DNA of 64,000 bases from Candidatus Poribacteria bacterium (lineage in GTDB: Bacteria > Poribacteria > WGA-4E > WGA-3G), in the NCBI GenBank assembly GCA_965205015.1, contig OZ242029.1:1440001-1504000 (forward strand). Reading direction: 5' to 3'. How positions within the stretch are numbered: position 1 is the first letter of the stretch; each line of letters starts with the position of its first letter. Under the pieces are notes generated by a model, which saw only the letters and a list, made by a program, of their open reading frames with translations, was not told the origin of the DNA and did not search any database. Made by a program: the position numbers and the translations under genes. Shown one piece after another: positions 19,499-31,799 of the stretch.

Positions 19499-19617
19499 TA
19501 TAGTAGATCCTACAATTAAATGGACACCCAAGAGTTGGCGAGGTTAGAAACCTCGCCAGCGGCGGCGCAGGGTTTTGTGTTTTAGAGAGTGTTCACTTAT
19601 TTCTGGGTTTTACTATA
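19499..19617. mobile_element. MITE with TATAGTA/TACTATA termini carrying a REP hairpin
   Basis: End TGTTCACTTATTTCTGGGTTTTACTATA closely matches the reverse complement of the 21043 end. Confidence 0.6.
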
Positions 19618-19637
19618 AATCAGAAAGGATAGACACC

Positions 19638-24684: not shown

Positions 24685-25020
24685 TCAGTCCCTGAGATCG
24701 ATGAATTCTTTGCCCTTCTTGATTGCCGTTTGGATCTTTTTATAGGCGACTGCTGCGGTTTGAACATCGGGGAATTCTGCGACCTTCAGTGGCAGTGAAA
24801 CGAATTTTTTATGGTGCCGGTCGTATATGGAGCCGAGTGGTTTTGCGAATAGGATTCTCCCGTGTCGATAGATCTCACACCCCGCGCAATCGGTAGAACC
24901 GAGATGGCTATGGATAACAAACTTCATGGCAACTTCCTCACTACCGACCTTTCGCACAACACGTCGCCTATTCTCCAGAACAGAAAACGTTTTAGGCATT
25001 TCGAGATCATAAATCACCAC
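24685..25020 (-). CDS. Hypothetical protein
   Basis: 111-aa ORF overlapping the upstream stop. Confidence 0.5.
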   Translation of the reverse strand: MVIYDLEMPKTFSVLENRRRVVRKVGSEEVAMKFVIHSHLGSTDCAGCEIYRHGRILFAKPLGSIYDRHHKKFVSLPLKVAEFPDVQTAAVAYKKIQTAIKKGKEFIDLRD

Positions 25021-25382
25021 TTGTGGATACGCGGCAGGAGCCTTCCCATGAAGATGCCGAATAAGGTGCCGACAGTAAAAAGAGCGACGTTCTCATAGAG
25101 TTCGCTGCCTCTCTTATCCCTTATGTCTTCACGAAGCTGTTGTAGTTCCTGCTCTTCTCTTGCCATTTCCCGTTTGCGACGCTGCCGTTCGACCGCCTTC
25201 TGTTCTCGCTTTGCCGTCTTTTCCACTCGCCTTGTTGATTTGAGTGCTTTTTTCTCTGCCCTGTCTACTTCCTTTGGGGTAGGTAGTTGCTCGGATGCCC
25301 AAGCGTCTCTGACACACAAACTCATCAGAACTGCAGAGACAATGACACAGACGAGCGTTGAGCGTGTCAATGGCTTTTGCAT
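25014..25382 (-). CDS. Hypothetical protein: signal peptide, coiled coil, C-terminal TM helix
   Basis: GGAGG SD; sequence features. Confidence 0.55.
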   Translation of the reverse strand: MQKPLTRSTLVCVIVSAVLMSLCVRDAWASEQLPTPKEVDRAEKKALKSTRRVEKTAKREQKAVERQRRKREMAREEQELQQLREDIRDKRGSELYENVALFTVGTLFGIFMGRLLPRIHKW

Positions 25383-25433: not shown

Positions 25434-25961
25434 TTAGCGAAACACCGAGAGCAGAATATCATCGGTATCCGCGCTGTGCTGGTCGGCGATTTGCTCAACT
25501 GTCATTTCGGGATTCTCAACGGGAAATCCGTCGTTGCCAAGTTTATTAACGAGTTCTTTGACATCCACACCGACGAACGGTGCGAGACGGGTGACAGACG
25601 TTTGCTCCATCTTATCCATTATCAATTCTTCGGGTTCACCTCTGTCGAAAATGGCGGTTCTTGTGACAAGGCCTACCCCGAAAAAAAAAGCGAGTGCGAT
25701 GATGATGACACCTTTTTGAGAAAAATATCGCTTGAAGGGTCGCCAATTCGTATAGATGTGAAGCACAATAGCAACTGAAAACCCGATGCCAACGAGTTCA
25801 TGTGCGTATTTGAAGGGATTTTCCGAACCAAAAAACATCAGCAGCCCCGTGATTGCCGAAAAGATGCCAGCCCCGATAATGAGGGGTGTCGAAAACGATC
25901 GAATGTTTAGTTTTTTCATCAACCTGCTCCTTTTGCTTTTTAAATCTCTTGCAAGTTGCAA
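25434..25961 (-). CDS. DUF4405-like membrane protein (His-containing helices, cytochrome b-like)
   Basis: SAITGLLMFF, AHELVG, LHIYTNWRPFKRY; likely start is MKKLN after AGGAG. Confidence 0.65.
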   Translation of the reverse strand: MQLARDLKSKRSRLMKKLNIRSFSTPLIIGAGIFSAITGLLMFFGSENPFKYAHELVGIGFSVAIVLHIYTNWRPFKRYFSQKGVIIIALAFFFGVGLVTRTAIFDRGEPEELIMDKMEQTSVTRLAPFVGVDVKELVNKLGNDGFPVENPEMTVEQIADQHSADTDDILLSVFR

Positions 25962-26022
25962 AGTCGCATGGGAAAATTTTTATCCTCATTTTATTGAGGG
26001 TGGTGCATAAATAAAGTTGTGA

Positions 26023-26094
26023 AGCATCAGGATAATGGGTATGCTTTAATGAAATCACCCATATAAGGCATACCCAATGTATTATCCTGACGCT
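26023..26094. repeat. Long imperfect inverted repeat
   Basis: AGCATCAGGATAAT-GGGTATGCTTTA ... TAAGGCATACCC-AATGT-ATTATCCTGACGCT. Confidence 0.8.
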
Positions 26095-26149
26095 AAAGAG
26101 TATATCACATTTTTGTTTTCTTTGCTTGACGAGTTTTCTGATTAAGTGT

Positions 26150-26748
26150 GGCGATATACGCTTTAGGTCTTGATAACCACCTTTACTTTATTCCCTATTC
26201 ATAAGTCATCGACTTCTATAGGTTGCCTGTTTTCACAAGATTTCAACGCTATAGATAAAATGTTTTCAGGAGTGTTTCAAAGCACTTAACCTGATTATGC
26301 TTGCGTCTCTTGACGCTACCTAATCTCCGCAACCTTATGGACTACGAGAGTCCACTTAGGTTCTCTCTAATTTCCTGATAATAGACGTCTTGAGTTGATT
26401 GAGTGTTATCCTATACCCCAGTTCGTTAGGCATCCTAACGTTGTGTCTATTGGGTCTACTCGAATGCTGAACTATAAGCAACATTCCTTGAGACACCACG
26501 GTTTTTCAAGGCATTCTGTGTCGATACTTATGAGGCTTACGGATATTCAACTTTCGTTTACACGTGTCAATTCTTACCTGACGTATCAATTTTGGGTCTC
26601 TTGTGAGTTGCCTGTCCCTCAGATATTCGCCATTTTCCCTTGCTTCCCACAGAGTTGTTTCCAATATGCAGTTAGGGTAAGGTATGCGGTGTTAGACTCA
26701 CCGAGTAGGGATTGAACCTACATTCTATTATCGCTTATTAGAGCGCAC
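26150..26748 (-). mobile_element. Group II intron 5' half (DI-DIII, start of DIV); no RT ORF and no DV/DVI seen
   Basis: Starts GTGCG at 26748; EBS1 loop (26470-26476) and EBS2 (26521-26527) are complementary to the 5' exon; DIII-like GCGGAGA...TAGCGTC...GACGC...GTGCTTTGAAACAC resembles IIB/CL-class introns as I recall them. Confidence 0.8.
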
Positions 26749-26784
26749 TATAGTTTGTATCAAATGACCCCATGAGTTAAACTG

Positions 26785-26826
26785 AGGACTTACGCATTGA
26801 TACGATAAATCGCATCACTACAAACA
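26785..26826 (+). repeat. 42-bp direct repeat AGGACTTACGCA...CGATAAATCGCAT.ACTACAAACA (second copy 31045-31086)
   Basis: 37/42 identical by manual count. Confidence 0.8.
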
Positions 26827-26942
26827 TAAGGACCTTTGGCTGTTAGGTGTGTTTACATAGCACGCCATAGGTGCCAAGGGCGTGTATAGGGTGCGTGTCA
26901 GAGCGATAAGCATCGCTCACACCCTAACCGAGAAGAAGGACC

Positions 26943-27184
26943 GTAGGTTGGGTTGAACGGTATCCGAATCAAACGCTGGTGTGCCAAAATACATCACATC
27001 TGACCCACTCACACATACATCCACGACCCCAGTGAAACCCAACATTTTTCTTTTTCAACTCCTACAACCGTGTCGGTATGACGTTGGGTTTCGCTATCTC
27101 CTTGATTGCTATGAGGGTGTCGGGTGCTGAAATGTGCTTGGGGTCTCCAGAGTGTCTTTCTCAGTTCCGCTCAACCCAACCTAC
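26943..27184. repeat. REPIN-like doublet
   Basis: GTAGGTTGGGTTGA ... GAAACCCAAC ... GTTGGGTTTC ... TCAACCCAACCTAC. Confidence 0.75.
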
Positions 27185-27256
27185 TACGATACTCAGCAAC
27201 GATCGCTGGGAAACTAATAAACATCGGCATCCCAGCTATCCTATGGTCATTTGATA

Positions 27257-30200
27257 CTATTTGCGTATGAGCATCTTGCGTGTTGCGGTAAAGTCGCCTG
27301 CCATCAAAGTATAGAAATAGACACCACTCGCGACACGTTCACCTTGTGCATTTCTGCCATCCCAATATGCCGCACGGCTCCGGGTCCGATATACCCCTGC
27401 GCGTTGATGCCCTAATGCCACCGTCCGCACCAATGCCCCGTTCACAGCATAGATACACAGTGTCACTTCCGCAGGTGTCGCCAACTGATAGGGTATCCAC
27501 GTCTCCGGGTTGAACGGGTTGGGATAATTCACCAATAGAGCTGTCTCTTCCGGCGGTAACGCCGTCAAGAGACGTTCCAGCCAATCAATTCCGCGCTGCA
27601 AACGCACATCAAGGCGCGGTAAACGATATGCTGCTGCCAGCCACTGCTCTATTGTAGCACGCGACGACAGTGCCGCAGAAGTGCCAAGCGAAGCCGAAGG
27701 CGCAGCTGTAGCGCCGCCCAACTCACCCGCTACCAATACCAGATCCTGAATATTAACGACACCATCACCGTTGACATCCGCCATATTCTCACCCGTCTCT
27801 CCCAAATGCGAGGAGACCAACACCAAATCCTGGACATTCACCACACCATCTTCATTGACATCTGCACTCGGCCCGGTGTTCTGAGAAGGTTCTGTGAGTG
27901 AGTCAAACTCTACTTCAATCCCTCTTGCCTGCATCGAAGGAATATGTGTGTTAATGGAAGCATCGCTCAGTGGGTTCCGTCGAAGGTACAATCCTGGGTG
28001 GTTTCCCCGTGTCCCTGTCAGGTTTAACCTTTCCAGTGGGGACACATCCGAAATATTATTACCAGTAAGTTCCAAGTACTTGAGTTGTTTGAGTTCAGCG
28101 AGGGCGGAGACATCCGAAATGTTATTCCACGGAAGTTCCAAATACCAGAGTTGTTTGAGTCCAGCAAGCGCGGATATATCCGTGATGCTATTATGCCCAA
28201 GATCGAGTTCCCTGAGATTGTGGGCATGTTGAAGACCGGTGAGATTTTTTATCCCGCCACTATAGACCTTAAGCTTTGTTAGATTCAGCAGTGTGTGCGT
28301 CGTGATGGAGCCCTCAATCTCTTGCCGGATTGCGGCTGCCAAATTGGTATCTGGTATAGAGACAACTTCGGGAGGTGGTAGTAGGGAGGTAACATCATCC
28401 ACTGGAAAACTTGTCCATGAGTATGGGAAATTTCCATGAACATCCATAACATGCAGGCTTACAGTCTCGTTTCCCGGTTTTAAAGCAGTGGTGACAAAAT
28501 CAAAAGTACGGCTTGGATTTCCGTTTAAGTGCTTACAAGTAATCACTTCCAGAGAACCCGTTGCGGATCCACTCAGCGTTGTTGTAAGCAGCTGCACCTG
28601 GTGAAGTCCATCTGGATCGGTTACCTTGAAACGAAAGCGGATAGCATTGGGGGGAGAGACAAGGCTCGGTGGGAGCATCTCAATTTTAGTTTTTGCGTTG
28701 GCAGTGGTTTGGTGGGTGTTGAAGTAGCGGTGGACATCCAACCACTCCGCAGCACATTGCGACAATTCCCTGCGGACAGTCCCGTAAGACATCATGTAAG
28801 TATTACTACGGAAATCGTGACGCAAGCCAAAGGCATGTCCAAGTTCATGAGCAACTATGCTAAAATCAAGACAATCGAGGCCGTAGATGTTCGCTGATCC
28901 GCTATGACTTCCGCCGCCCCCACTACCGCATATTTTACGAGAATAAAAACTACGATCCAACACAACAAGACGGATACGTTTTGAACCGCGAAGCTGCTCC
29001 CCAATTTCTGAGAATGGGTTGTTATCGTGATCCGCGTAATCCGCATCCTCAAATCTCCCGACAATATGATACACAACGGCATTCCCGTGTGCGTCGGTTT
29101 CAAACTGGAAAGTTTTCCTACCGAATCCGTGTGCCTTCATCTGATCGGCATAAAATTGTTGGACATCCTTTATCAATTGATCCATCTTTACGTTTATGTT
29201 CGGAGGCGGTTGACGGTCGCGTGGACGGAAATAGATGAGCCGGACCACATACGCCGACTGCGTCAAGTCATTATCGAAACGGACATCTACGCCTGCCCCC
29301 TGTAGCCACGGGATATGTGTGCTGACGGCGGTGTCGCTCAGAGGATTGCCTTGCAAATAGAGCATCTGTAGACTTGTTGACGCTCTTAACTGCGCTAAGT
29401 CTACAAGGAATGATACATTTGATATCCAATTGTCCCTGAGTGCCAAGGTTGTCAGTTGTGTCAAGCCTACCAACGGCGACACATCCGAGATACTGTTGTT
29501 GTTAAGCGATAGGATTGTGAGATTTGAGGCGTGCTGCAGCCCGGTGAGGTCGTGAATGCCCGCATCGTTCGCGATCAGTGCCCTCAACTTCAGCATATCC
29601 GCAGCAGTCAGTGTTGCATCGGGCGGTTTCCGAAGGGTTTCCGTTATCCGTGCGCGGAGGTTGTCATCAGGGACAGACACGGGTGTGCTGCGCGGGCGAG
29701 CCGTCGCCGTAAACTGAACGGGTTTTAAAACATGTGCGGCGGTCACACGGACAGTCGTCGTGCCGAGGGTGGGTCCCATCCTCAACTGTGTTGCCGCCTT
29801 ACCTGTGGTATCCGTTGTTACAGTTGTCGCACTGAGTTTGCCGCCGCCACCCGTGATAGTAAACCGCACCGGCACGCCTGCAAATGCAAGATTCTGCTCA
29901 TCCCGCACTTCCACGACGAACGGGAACGGCACTGTCGAATTGATTCCGCCGTGTTGCGCGATCCCTGACACTTTCACGAGCGTCGTCGGGACGCGAGTGT
30001 CAAATTCTACCTCAATCCCTTTCGCTTGCATGGCGGGAATATGGGTGTTGATGGAAACGTAACTCAGTGGATTTCCCTCAATATCCAATCCTGTGCGGTT
30101 CCACTCCGTCCCTGTCAGATTTAGTCCCACTATAGGGGACACATCTGAGATGTTATTCCAAACAAGCCCCAACCCAGTGAGTTGCTTGAGAGTAGAAAGA

Positions 30201-31015
30201 GGGGATACATCCGAAATATTATTACCCCCAAGCTCCAACCCAGTGAGTTGTGTGAGGGCAGCAAGCGGGGATAGGTCCGTGATGTTATTACTGGAAAGCC
30301 CCAACTCGGTGAGTTGTTTAAGGGTAGCGAGAGGAGATATATCTGAAATATTATTTCTCCCAAGCTTCAACCTTTTGAGTCGTTTAAGTTCGGCGAGGGT
30401 GGATATATCCGAGATGCTATTCACCCCAAGATCCAACCCAGTGAGTTGTTCGAGTCCAGCAAGCGGAGACACATCCGAGATGTTATTAAACCGCAGGTCT
30501 AACCCAGTGAGTTGTTTGAGGGCAGCAAGCGGAGATATGTCTGAGATGTTATTCCAAACAAGCCCCAACCCAGTGAGTTGCTTGAGAGTAGAAAGAGGGG
30601 ATACATCCGAAATATTATTACCCCCAAGTTCCAACCCAGTGAGTTGTGTGAGGGCAGCAAGCGGGGATAGGTCCGTGATGCTATTACTCCGAAGCACCAA
30701 CCCAGTGAGTTGTTTGAGAGCAGAAAGGGGGAATAGGTCCGATATTTCATTCGTGTTAAGGATCAATACCTCGAGGTTGCGTGCGTGTTCAAGACCGGTG
30801 AGATTTTTTATCCCGCGACCAGGGGCTTCAAGCCGCGTGAGCTTCAGCAGCGTGTGCGTCGTGATAGAATTGCCAATCTCTTGCCGGATTGCGGCTGCTA
30901 AATTCGCATCGGGTATGGACACAACTTTAGGCTGTCCCTGTTGTGCTTGTGAAAAGTTTGCGATTAACAGACCGAATAGAACCGCGATCCTAACAAATAG
31001 ACGTTTGACGTGCAT
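27257..31015 (-). CDS. Secreted internalin-like LRR protein with Ig-like domain, metzincin metallopeptidase, dockerin-like repeat and T9SS-CTD-like tail
   Basis: 22-aa LRRs; HELGHAFGLRH plus Met-turn (YMMSY); DVNEDGVVNVQDL / DVNGDGVVNIQDL; NYPNPFNPETWIPYQL. Confidence 0.9.
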   Translation of the reverse strand: MHVKRLFVRIAVLFGLLIANFSQAQQGQPKVVSIPDANLAAAIRQEIGNSITTHTLLKLTRLEAPGRGIKNLTGLEHARNLEVLILNTNEISDLFPLSALKQLTGLVLRSNSITDLSPLAALTQLTGLELGGNNISDVSPLSTLKQLTGLGLVWNNISDISPLAALKQLTGLDLRFNNISDVSPLAGLEQLTGLDLGVNSISDISTLAELKRLKRLKLGRNNISDISPLATLKQLTELGLSSNNITDLSPLAALTQLTGLELGGNNISDVSPLSTLKQLTGLGLVWNNISDVSPIVGLNLTGTEWNRTGLDIEGNPLSYVSINTHIPAMQAKGIEVEFDTRVPTTLVKVSGIAQHGGINSTVPFPFVVEVRDEQNLAFAGVPVRFTITGGGGKLSATTVTTDTTGKAATQLRMGPTLGTTTVRVTAAHVLKPVQFTATARPRSTPVSVPDDNLRARITETLRKPPDATLTAADMLKLRALIANDAGIHDLTGLQHASNLTILSLNNNSISDVSPLVGLTQLTTLALRDNWISNVSFLVDLAQLRASTSLQMLYLQGNPLSDTAVSTHIPWLQGAGVDVRFDNDLTQSAYVVRLIYFRPRDRQPPPNINVKMDQLIKDVQQFYADQMKAHGFGRKTFQFETDAHGNAVVYHIVGRFEDADYADHDNNPFSEIGEQLRGSKRIRLVVLDRSFYSRKICGSGGGGSHSGSANIYGLDCLDFSIVAHELGHAFGLRHDFRSNTYMMSYGTVRRELSQCAAEWLDVHRYFNTHQTTANAKTKIEMLPPSLVSPPNAIRFRFKVTDPDGLHQVQLLTTTLSGSATGSLEVITCKHLNGNPSRTFDFVTTALKPGNETVSLHVMDVHGNFPYSWTSFPVDDVTSLLPPPEVVSIPDTNLAAAIRQEIEGSITTHTLLNLTKLKVYSGGIKNLTGLQHAHNLRELDLGHNSITDISALAGLKQLWYLELPWNNISDVSALAELKQLKYLELTGNNISDVSPLERLNLTGTRGNHPGLYLRRNPLSDASINTHIPSMQARGIEVEFDSLTEPSQNTGPSADVNEDGVVNVQDLVLVSSHLGETGENMADVNGDGVVNIQDLVLVAGELGGATAAPSASLGTSAALSSRATIEQWLAAAYRLPRLDVRLQRGIDWLERLLTALPPEETALLVNYPNPFNPETWIPYQLATPAEVTLCIYAVNGALVRTVALGHQRAGVYRTRSRAAYWDGRNAQGERVASGVYFYTLMAGDFTATRKMLIRK

Positions 31016-31094
31016 GTAAGAGTCTCCATAGCACTATTCTGAGTAGGACTTACGCAGACATGCGATAAATCGCATGACTACAAACAGATATACC

Positions 31095-31799
31095 TTAGAA
31101 ATCTGGCTGTATCCATAACTGGTAGCCAACGCCCTCGGAAGTCAATGCCACAATGTTATTCTGTTCTGGAACCGCTAATACATCGTTGTGATACAATCGC
31201 ACGCGTACTGTCTCTACGGGGCGCGTGATATCAAAAGTAGCAACGCCATCGGCATCTTGGAATCTGTGCAGACAGACTGCTTCCGCGCCTGTAAGCATTG
31301 CGTGTGCATCCCATGCCTTTACACCTGCCTCCGCCGATAGGACATTTTCCCGTATCCTGAGGTGCGTCTCACTTTCATCCATTGTCTCCCCTGCCTCTAA
31401 AATAATTGCAGCAGATTCGGCATAGGATGGTACCTTGCAAACCGCGATTTCAATTCCGGTTTCGCCTGGTAGCACCTCATAAGTAGTATGATGTGGAATA
31501 TGCGCTACACACGCCGCGCTGTGAAAAACGTCCGGACGCTCGCCCAAAATTCCGTTCGCTTTGTTGCCGTTATGTCCGATCAGTAAGGTGCCCTGTCCAC
31601 CTAACGCAATCAAGGCGACTTCAGTATCATCAGAATGGTCAAAAAAGGGGGTTTCGGGGGTGAGATTCAGAATTCCGAAATGGAGTTTCGTGATGCCCAT
31701 TTCGCCGGGCGTTACAATTTCGGTGTAGCCCTCGGTAGGTTTTTTAATTTTACCTTGCGGATAAGTATCGTGATAAGAACTTTGAAAGTTTTTGATCAC
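31095..31799 (-). CDS. IolB/KduI-like cupin protein (5-deoxy-glucuronate isomerase family, divergent)
   Basis: LHFGILNL, EVALIALGG, LGERPDVF; the expected His-rich active-site segment is not obvious. Confidence 0.55.
   Translation of the reverse strand: MIKNFQSSYHDTYPQGKIKKPTEGYTEIVTPGEMGITKLHFGILNLTPETPFFDHSDDTEVALIALGGQGTLLIGHNGNKANGILGERPDVFHSAACVAHIPHHTTYEVLPGETGIEIAVCKVPSYAESAAIILEAGETMDESETHLRIRENVLSAEAGVKAWDAHAMLTGAEAVCLHRFQDADGVATFDITRPVETVRVRLYHNDVLAVPEQNNIVALTSEGVGYQLWIQPDF

Follow-up and report, generated by a model that had tools for sequence, protein, structure and literature searches.

The minus strand of an intergenic spacer in the genome of Candidatus Poribacteria, a sponge symbiont, carries what looks like the start of a group II intron directly beside the end of a dispersed repeat. 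The locus raises the question whether an intron has homed into that repeat end and, if so, how much of it is left. The window analysed here is the whole stretch of 64,000 nucleotides that contains the spacer. The spacer itself is non-coding and 1.3 kb long, and the genes on both sides of it were identified by Pfam scan. The upstream gene (27257-31015, minus strand) encodes a 1252-aa LRR/dockerin/FlgD_ig protein with a type IX sorting-type C-terminus, and the downstream gene (25434-25961, minus strand) a DUF4405 membrane protein, the relatives of which align from residue 15 on. Beyond the latter, a 122-aa ORF (25014-25382, minus strand) scores 27.1 bits for OrfB_IS605, below the cut-off of 30.5; it may be what remains of a TnpB gene, or an artefact of low complexity.

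Read on the minus strand, the last base of the 5' flank ...GGTCATTTGATACAAACTATA is 26749, and from 26748 there follows GTGCG (26744-26748), corresponding to the 5' splice-site consensus GUGCG. The original prediction was of a group II intron whose EBS1 and EBS2 recognize the terminal repeat of a MITE, and the elements on which it was built (GTGCG, EBS1 in a hairpin loop and EBS2, the complementary sequences of both in the flank, and a repeat of 509 bp) are all present on this strand, at the coordinates given below. We conclude, with a probability of about 0.9, that a small ORF-less group II intron, belonging to a IIB-like poribacterial lineage, survives in decayed form at positions 26748-26142 of the minus strand, having homed into the repeat end and later been truncated at its 3' end.

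Homology to full-length introns

The 150 genomes of the order around G001 were searched with window positions 26790-26100 as the query. Some match was obtained in 95 of them, in many cases to a 35-nt repeat end only, and the intron body was matched in at least 44 of the 150 genomes, counted among the matches listed. More than 12 matches span the query from position 42/43, the G of GTGCG at 26748, to positions 644-649 (26147-26142), and the top E-values of such end-to-end matches range from 5e-266 to 2e-81. When 12 full-length relatives were compared with the window, all 12 aligned from 26748 to 26142-26147, with 70.9-92.8% identity and E-values from 3e-61 to 0.0. This homology delimits a fragment of 607 nt (26142-26748, minus strand), and no other fragment of the family was found in the window, as the 12 relatives match nowhere else in it; a blast of the spacer against the window did not reveal a second copy either. 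The full-length relatives are ORF-less as well, measure 686-727 nt and end in ...CTACCCTAC or variants thereof.

In a MAFFT alignment of full-length copies with their flanks, all 14 continue into a domain V of textbook form (...CCGTGTGCGGTGAAAGTCGCACGCACGG...), and the window row departs from them after ...CACACTTAA. The Rfam model RF00029 (Intron_gpII, domains V-VI; gathering threshold 40 bits) gave 10 hits in the loci of 9 of the 12 relatives, with scores of 46.5-74.8 bits, and an additional hit of 67.6 bits for the copy in G141. Each hit sits directly 3' of the homologous part, and the model is matched over all 77 positions in the full-length relatives. The sole G120 copy that was scanned (L026) stays below the gathering threshold, though its domain V sequence is visible. 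No Rfam family reached its gathering threshold anywhere in the 64-kb window, and at E ≤ 10 the region 25500-27500 returned five weak chance hits of snoRNA/sRNA type and no group II family. For the Rfam group-II-D1D4 families there was no hit at gathering in the loci of the 12 relatives, and none at E ≤ 10 in 25500-27500. Rfam thus misses domains I-IV of this lineage; no curated model underlies their assignment to group II, which is founded on homology and covariation.

The homology to full-length relatives bearing RF00029, together with the covariation described below, bears out the claim that the stretch is group II intron RNA. The covariance-model check that had been proposed for it came out differently for the two: the window copy has no Rfam match, but its full-length relatives match RF00029. 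The original prediction was to be given up if no covariance model matched; as identity is shown here by homology to relatives that do match, this rule would have wrongly discarded the finding.

Three genomes reached through the DUF4405 neighbor (G001-G003, Poribacteria) contain repeat ends only, without an intron body or RF00029 hit, and the four Poribacteria loci found with the DUF4405 protein have no synteny or intergenic similarity in common. Parts of the stretch recur with 85-96% identity in contigs of sponge metagenomes and metatranscriptomes. In a scan of metagenomes, the exact 19-mer across the junction of repeat end and intron gave no hits, and a conserved 18-mer gave 70 loci, none of which was homologous by blastn.

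Fold and recognition of the 5' exon

An alignment of the 12 relatives and the window copy (A1, 13 sequences) was folded with RNAalifold. The family fold predicted in this way has six domains and 197 pairs, 86 of them with compensatory changes, and the window copy holds the first four domains. The initial GUGCG fills columns 1-5 and is invariant in 13 of 13 sequences. Domain I (26365-26743, minus strand; columns 6-456) is closed by helices with compensatory changes, and its label is our reading of the fold. Domains II (26331-26362, minus strand; columns 459-490) and III (26293-26325, minus strand; columns 496-528) are labeled from the order of the helices, the inner helix of domain III showing covariation (GC:10 CG:3, CG:7 UA:6, GC:7 CG:6). 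Domain IV (26142-26291, minus strand; columns 530-686) contains no ORF and is cut at its 3' edge. The minimum free energy fold of the window fragment alone is unremarkable, with z = -1.26 and 2 of 20 shuffled sequences folding as well. A 106-aa ORF on the plus strand inside the fragment was rejected as a gene, as it belongs to no Pfam family.

EBS1 is presented by a hairpin at 26462-26486 (minus strand) with a stem of 8 bp, which covaries in the family (columns 289-294/323-328; GC:7 CG:5, UA:8 AU:5). Its loop, TATAGTT (26476-26470), forms seven out of seven Watson-Crick pairs with AACTATA (26755-26749), the IBS1. EBS2, GTATCGA (26527-26521, minus strand), likewise pairs over seven out of seven positions, one of them G-U, with the IBS2 TTGATAC (26763-26757; positions -15 to -9), and a single A separates IBS2 from IBS1 within the target at 26749-26763 (minus strand). 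This full target is found once in the window, at the occupied site, and the next matches have three or more mismatches. The TATAGT termini at 1937 and 19499, which the original prediction placed on other MITEs of the window, do not appear among the 11 matches to AACTATA in the window and are not targets, and this part of it was not upheld.

Across the family, the EBS1 loop covaries with the 5' exon over at least eight target sequences. Besides the pair of the window type (TATAGTT/AACTATA), the EBS1/IBS1 combinations CTGATT/AATCAG, TCACAAT/ATTGTGA, GCACAAT/ATTGTGC, CATTTG/CAAATG, ATAGGA/TCCTAT, CCTAC/GTAGG and TGGGAGT/ACTCCCA were observed. The last six exon nucleotides pair at all six positions with the cognate EBS1 window in 17 of 34 distinct exon/intron combinations, compared to 5.1% for non-cognate ones. 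For IBS2/EBS2 the pairing is imperfect in many relatives, and the corresponding values are 9 of 34 and 4.6%; in the G120 lineage the EBS2 position covaries as well, with GACAA pairing with TTGTC. The excess of cognate over non-cognate pairing in these 34 combinations indicates that EBS1 and EBS2 were both correctly assigned from the single sequence.

The repeat end and the loss of the 3' part

[quoted passage not shown] With a lower limit of 50 aa, the element contains one ORF of 58 aa (27078-27254) and, in addition, the opening codons of another frame, which is 54 aa long and has its start at 27251. The 13-nt inverted-repeat motif occurs in the window at this element only. Copies with both ends were found on contigs C15, C18 and C20 of G001, and a 21-mer of the right end, with up to two mismatches, has 19 sites in five genomes, or 3-6 per genome. 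Under a strict pattern, both ends occur together at only 6 of these 19 sites, and in G001 the left-end module has about eight matches versus three for the right end. No clear target-site duplication was visible by eye at the repeat ends, and "MITE-like" is the safer label than MITE.

In all cases the MITE-like repeat has its left end at the stop codon (...AAATAG, followed directly by TATCA...) of a gene with a FlgD_ig/type IX sorting-type C-terminal domain. The last ~90 coding and ~60 post-stop bases of that gene end are 77-86% identical between loci and genomes, in a comparison of window positions 27245-27343 with L008, L011, L012, L061, L062, L066, L067 and L072. Either the repeat targets the end of FlgD_ig genes, or gene end and repeat travel together. 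Other short repeats were noticed as well. One of 42-52 nt with a small palindrome occurs inside the MITE-like element (26785-26836) and just upstream of the start of the LRR gene (31045-31096), the two being 83-88% identical; and two intergenic regions (~2140-2170 and ~19585-19620, minus strand) share TTATAGTAAA, followed after 16-17 bases by GTGAACA.

The two closest relatives, G087a (L019/L073) and the copy in G141 (L020/L067), with 92-95% identity, sit at the same ...GATACAAACTATA repeat end, and the original prediction was right to see in the 5' exon the end of a dispersed element with inverted repeats. A third close relative, G087b, lies at a look-alike site, ...GATATAAACTATA. Of the 19 repeat ends in the five genomes, 2 are occupied and 17 are empty. 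The empty ends mostly run on with A(G/A)TA-type sequence or similar, and the 3' exon of G087a starts with AGTAGAG; this match between empty ends and the 3' exon of an occupied site indicates that the intron went into the repeat and not the reverse.

Introns of other lineages were found at other targets, with EBS1 covarying. A sister lineage, with EBS1 CATTTG/CATATG, occupies the other inverted end of the same repeat, and its exons rejoin to TATCAAATG followed by ACTATAGGATAGCTGG. A third lineage is represented by 17 ORF-less copies in G120, which are 98.9-100% identical to each other and lie in a short repeat, between ATTGTCTGAATCAG and GATT. Sites of this type number 16 occupied and 52 empty in G120, and 2 occupied and 72 empty in G110. 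The multicopy landing site that had been proposed for the window intron therefore needs to be qualified: the 21-nt repeat end is indeed dispersed, but its copy number is low and few of the copies are occupied. Homing into multicopy non-coding repeats holds as a general idea, with the window's own target, at 3-6 per genome, on the low-copy side. It is conceivable, if somewhat doubtful, that the lineage has specialized in the ends of short repeats as harmless landing pads, to be retargeted repeatedly through changes in EBS between repeat families or ends. It might still be bursting in some genomes by means of a protein acting in trans, as may be suggested by G120, where 16-17 ORF-less copies are nearly identical and 52 sites are still empty, and transposition of the repeat could carry copies along. 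If so, an RNA retroelement would, through its repeat-borne copies, have a second way to spread, at the level of DNA.

With regard to the extent of the intron, originally put at 26150-26769, the lower bound is within 8 nt of the end of homology at 26142, but the stretch is not a whole intron: it is cut before domain V. The window row stops at column 686 of A1, and the relatives go on to domain V (columns 692-728) and domain VI (731-767), which places the break about 10 nt before domain V and leaves the window copy without ~80 nt of domain V-VI that are present in every full-length relative. No domain V was detected in the window, whether as a hit to RF00029, as the core motif, or as a blast match to the domain V-VI of the relatives better than E 1.5. 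Domain VI and the 3' splice site are absent from the window copy, and no reverse transcriptase gene or intron-encoded protein was found in the window (best tblastn E 0.36). Domain V is the catalytic center of all group II introns. Lacking domains V and VI, a 3' splice site and an intron-encoded protein, the window copy would be unable to splice or move by itself and, judged from its sequence, is a dead 5' fragment.

The break at 26142/26141 coincides with the edge of a second small dispersed repeat of ~151 bp (25991-26141), which abuts the truncated end of the intron. This repeat forms a long hairpin (26023-26094; arms 26023-26036/26081-26094 and 26036-26048/26064-26076). A sequence with 95% identity to it is present in G080, and G125 gave 15 matches, many of them at contig ends. 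A DNA contig of 754 nt from run X3 is identical to the window and covers both junctions (26025-26778), making an assembly error unlikely as the cause of the truncation. A contig from an RNA library (run X17; 26667-26782, one difference) crosses the 5' junction unspliced, for which carry-over of DNA is an equally possible explanation. Such contigs give neither expression level nor strand, and the analysis made no use of parts without RNA cover or of the many joints with short sides inside the repeats of the upstream gene.

The process of homing bears on the order of these events. Target-primed reverse transcription begins at the 3' end of the intron, and incomplete copying gives 5'-truncated copies. 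Incomplete reverse transcription would thus have removed sequence from the 5' side, and the 3' loss seen here would be due to a later deletion. Such a deletion agrees with the way in which bacterial introns decay according to PMC4181065. In the history that we propose, a full-length intron of ~690 nt would have been mobilized in trans by a reverse transcriptase/maturase encoded elsewhere and would have reverse-spliced into the right end of the MITE-like repeat, between ...TTGATACAAACTATA and A(G/A)TA..., with base pairing of EBS2 and EBS1 determining the choice of the site. Subsequently, the part beginning ~10 nt ahead of domain V would have been lost up to the edge of the repeat 25991-26141, and with it the last two domains, the 3' splice site and the 3' exon, leaving domains I-IV; both this order and deletion as the mechanism are what we infer. 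The remnant, which has the same sense as both flanking genes, could be transcribed within the intergenic RNA, without splicing catalysis or autonomous movement.

Several other explanations have to be weighed against this history. The ~600-nt stretch might be a complete and active miniature group II intron, and the correct 5' GUGCG, EBS1 and EBS2 as well as the shared sense with the flanking genes would be in line with this. Yet the lack of a domain V-VI that all full-length relatives possess, together with the lack of an RF00029 hit, makes such an intron extremely unlikely. Could it instead belong to a split intron that is spliced in trans, its other half, with domain V-VI and the 3' exon, being encoded elsewhere in the genome? 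In organelles, group II introns that undergo trans-splicing are mostly divided within domain IV, and the break here is at the 3' edge of that domain. Against this, the "exons" are non-coding repeat ends, so that nothing selects for splicing, and the edge of a further repeat lies exactly at the break. Moreover, loss of the 3' part is a documented decay route (PMC4181065), and among the 15 joints listed of 70, none starts from 26749. We consider a split intron very improbable.

It may also be asked whether the repeat was inserted beside a pre-existing intron, with the match between EBS and IBS being incidental, as both elements look mobile and adjacency alone does not give an order. This sequence of events has very little probability in our view: the 15-nt match over IBS2 and IBS1 is a specific one that shows covariation between lineages, G087 and G141 have the same junction, and empty ends in five genomes carry the target together with sequence matching the 3' exon of the occupied G087 site. 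Finally, the spacer might resemble an intron by chance, or the stretch might be another kind of RNA or MITE. Either could account for the absence of an Rfam hit, the ordinary z-score of the fold and the lack of a second copy in the window, but their probability is practically negligible in view of end-to-end homology to elements bearing RF00029, with E-values down to 5e-266, and the 86 covarying pairs.

Relatives and known systems

A helper protein may be found among the relatives. ORFs bearing a GIIM domain number one each in G120 and G141. In G120, the intron containing the ORF is 2334 nt long, has 68-79% identity in its domains I-III with the ORF-less family and encodes a 564-aa protein with RVT_N, RVT_1, GIIM and HNH domains. 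This protein is most like chain C of PDB entry 6ME0 (E 8e-97), the structure described as the Th.e.I3 intron complex of T. elongatus (PMC8643678). On a possible CL/IIB1-like placement of the family, the observations are this match and the presence of EBS2. The 2334-nt intron interrupts a tRNA-SeC (tca) gene (L078, G120:C1:410000-414400), which ARAGORN recognizes in the exons joined in silico; in five interrupted loci as they stand, the program found no genes.

The closest parallel is provided by T. elongatus, for which Mohr, Ghanem and Lambowitz (2010, PMC2882425) describe 28 related IIB1 introns, 17 of them ORF-less and 3 of them fragments. The TeI3 and TeI4 (CL/IIB1) families differ mainly in their EBS and hence in their targets; three introns are located at a conserved site in ISEL1, of the IS200 family, others inside intron ORFs, and one ORF-containing intron, TeI4h, in a tRNA-Ile gene (PMC2882425). 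The poribacterial introns are similar in having ORF-less copies beside an ORF-containing relative, several EBS1 types, targets in mobile DNA and fragments, and the location of the ORF-containing G120 intron in a tRNA gene resembles that of TeI4h. In contrast to the IS element and the intron ORFs named there, the poribacterial targets are short non-coding repeats (MITE-like ends and a short repeat of 50-70 copies). The host also differs, being sponge-associated Poribacteria and not a cyanobacterium, and the poribacterial introns are known here from sequence alone.

A second precedent is RmInt1 of Sinorhizobium meliloti, the homing site of which is in IS elements of the ISRm2011-2 group (Toro et al., 2014, PMC4181065). 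According to that report, introns of this type decay by loss of the 3' part, and fragments from the 5' side of the ribozyme are retained in intergenic regions beside genes (PMC4181065). The window copy, a 5' ribozyme fragment in an intergenic region, is like these remnants; unlike what is given there for RmInt1, the ORF-containing poribacterial relative has an HNH domain, and the copies at issue are ORF-less.

Each feature of the window locus has a precedent in the introns of T. elongatus or in RmInt1, and the fate of the copy and its kind of target are ordinary. The new aspects are the phylum of the host, targets that are MITE-like or short repeats, and a lineage that is missed by the Rfam models for domains I-IV. 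In the literature searched, no report links Poribacteria in substance with group II introns, and among the papers listed, judged by title or abstract, none has a group II intron that homed into a MITE; PMC4853749 describes the presence of a MITE in an intron of group I. For annotation, a third of the 1.3-kb spacer is explained as an intron remnant invisible to Rfam. The analysis further defines a family of ORF-less group II introns of ~690 nt in Poribacteria and, beside T. elongatus, adds a second natural case of ORF-less multiplication, retargeting through EBS and homing into multicopy non-coding repeats.

Some further observations were made on the relatives. In the closest one, L188 (G141:C62:27700-30400), domain IV contains on the opposite strand a gene for a 421-aa TnpB-type protein (OrfB_IS605 and Cas12f1-like_TNB); with the intron located at a repeat end, this makes three nested mobile elements. 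Introns also border on each other: in L031 the domain V-VI of one copy is directly followed by a 5'-truncated copy, and in L159 the 5' exon ends with ...GGCTACCCTAC, which is the 3' end of another intron. Four related introns (L036, L038, L040 and L041, in G107, G103, G100 and G113, respectively) have the 5' exon GCGCCTGTAGCTCAGGGGA(T/C)AG in common, which looks like the half of a tRNA gene that comprises the acceptor and D-arm, and these loci end before the 3' exon. In another intron lineage (L025, L029, L032, L037, L045, L054 and L055) the common target is ...CTAAACCAAGATTGTG(A/C/G), directly before the intron. Three copies of this lineage have the target and then TA(T/C)AAT, and the two together resemble an extended -10 promoter box.
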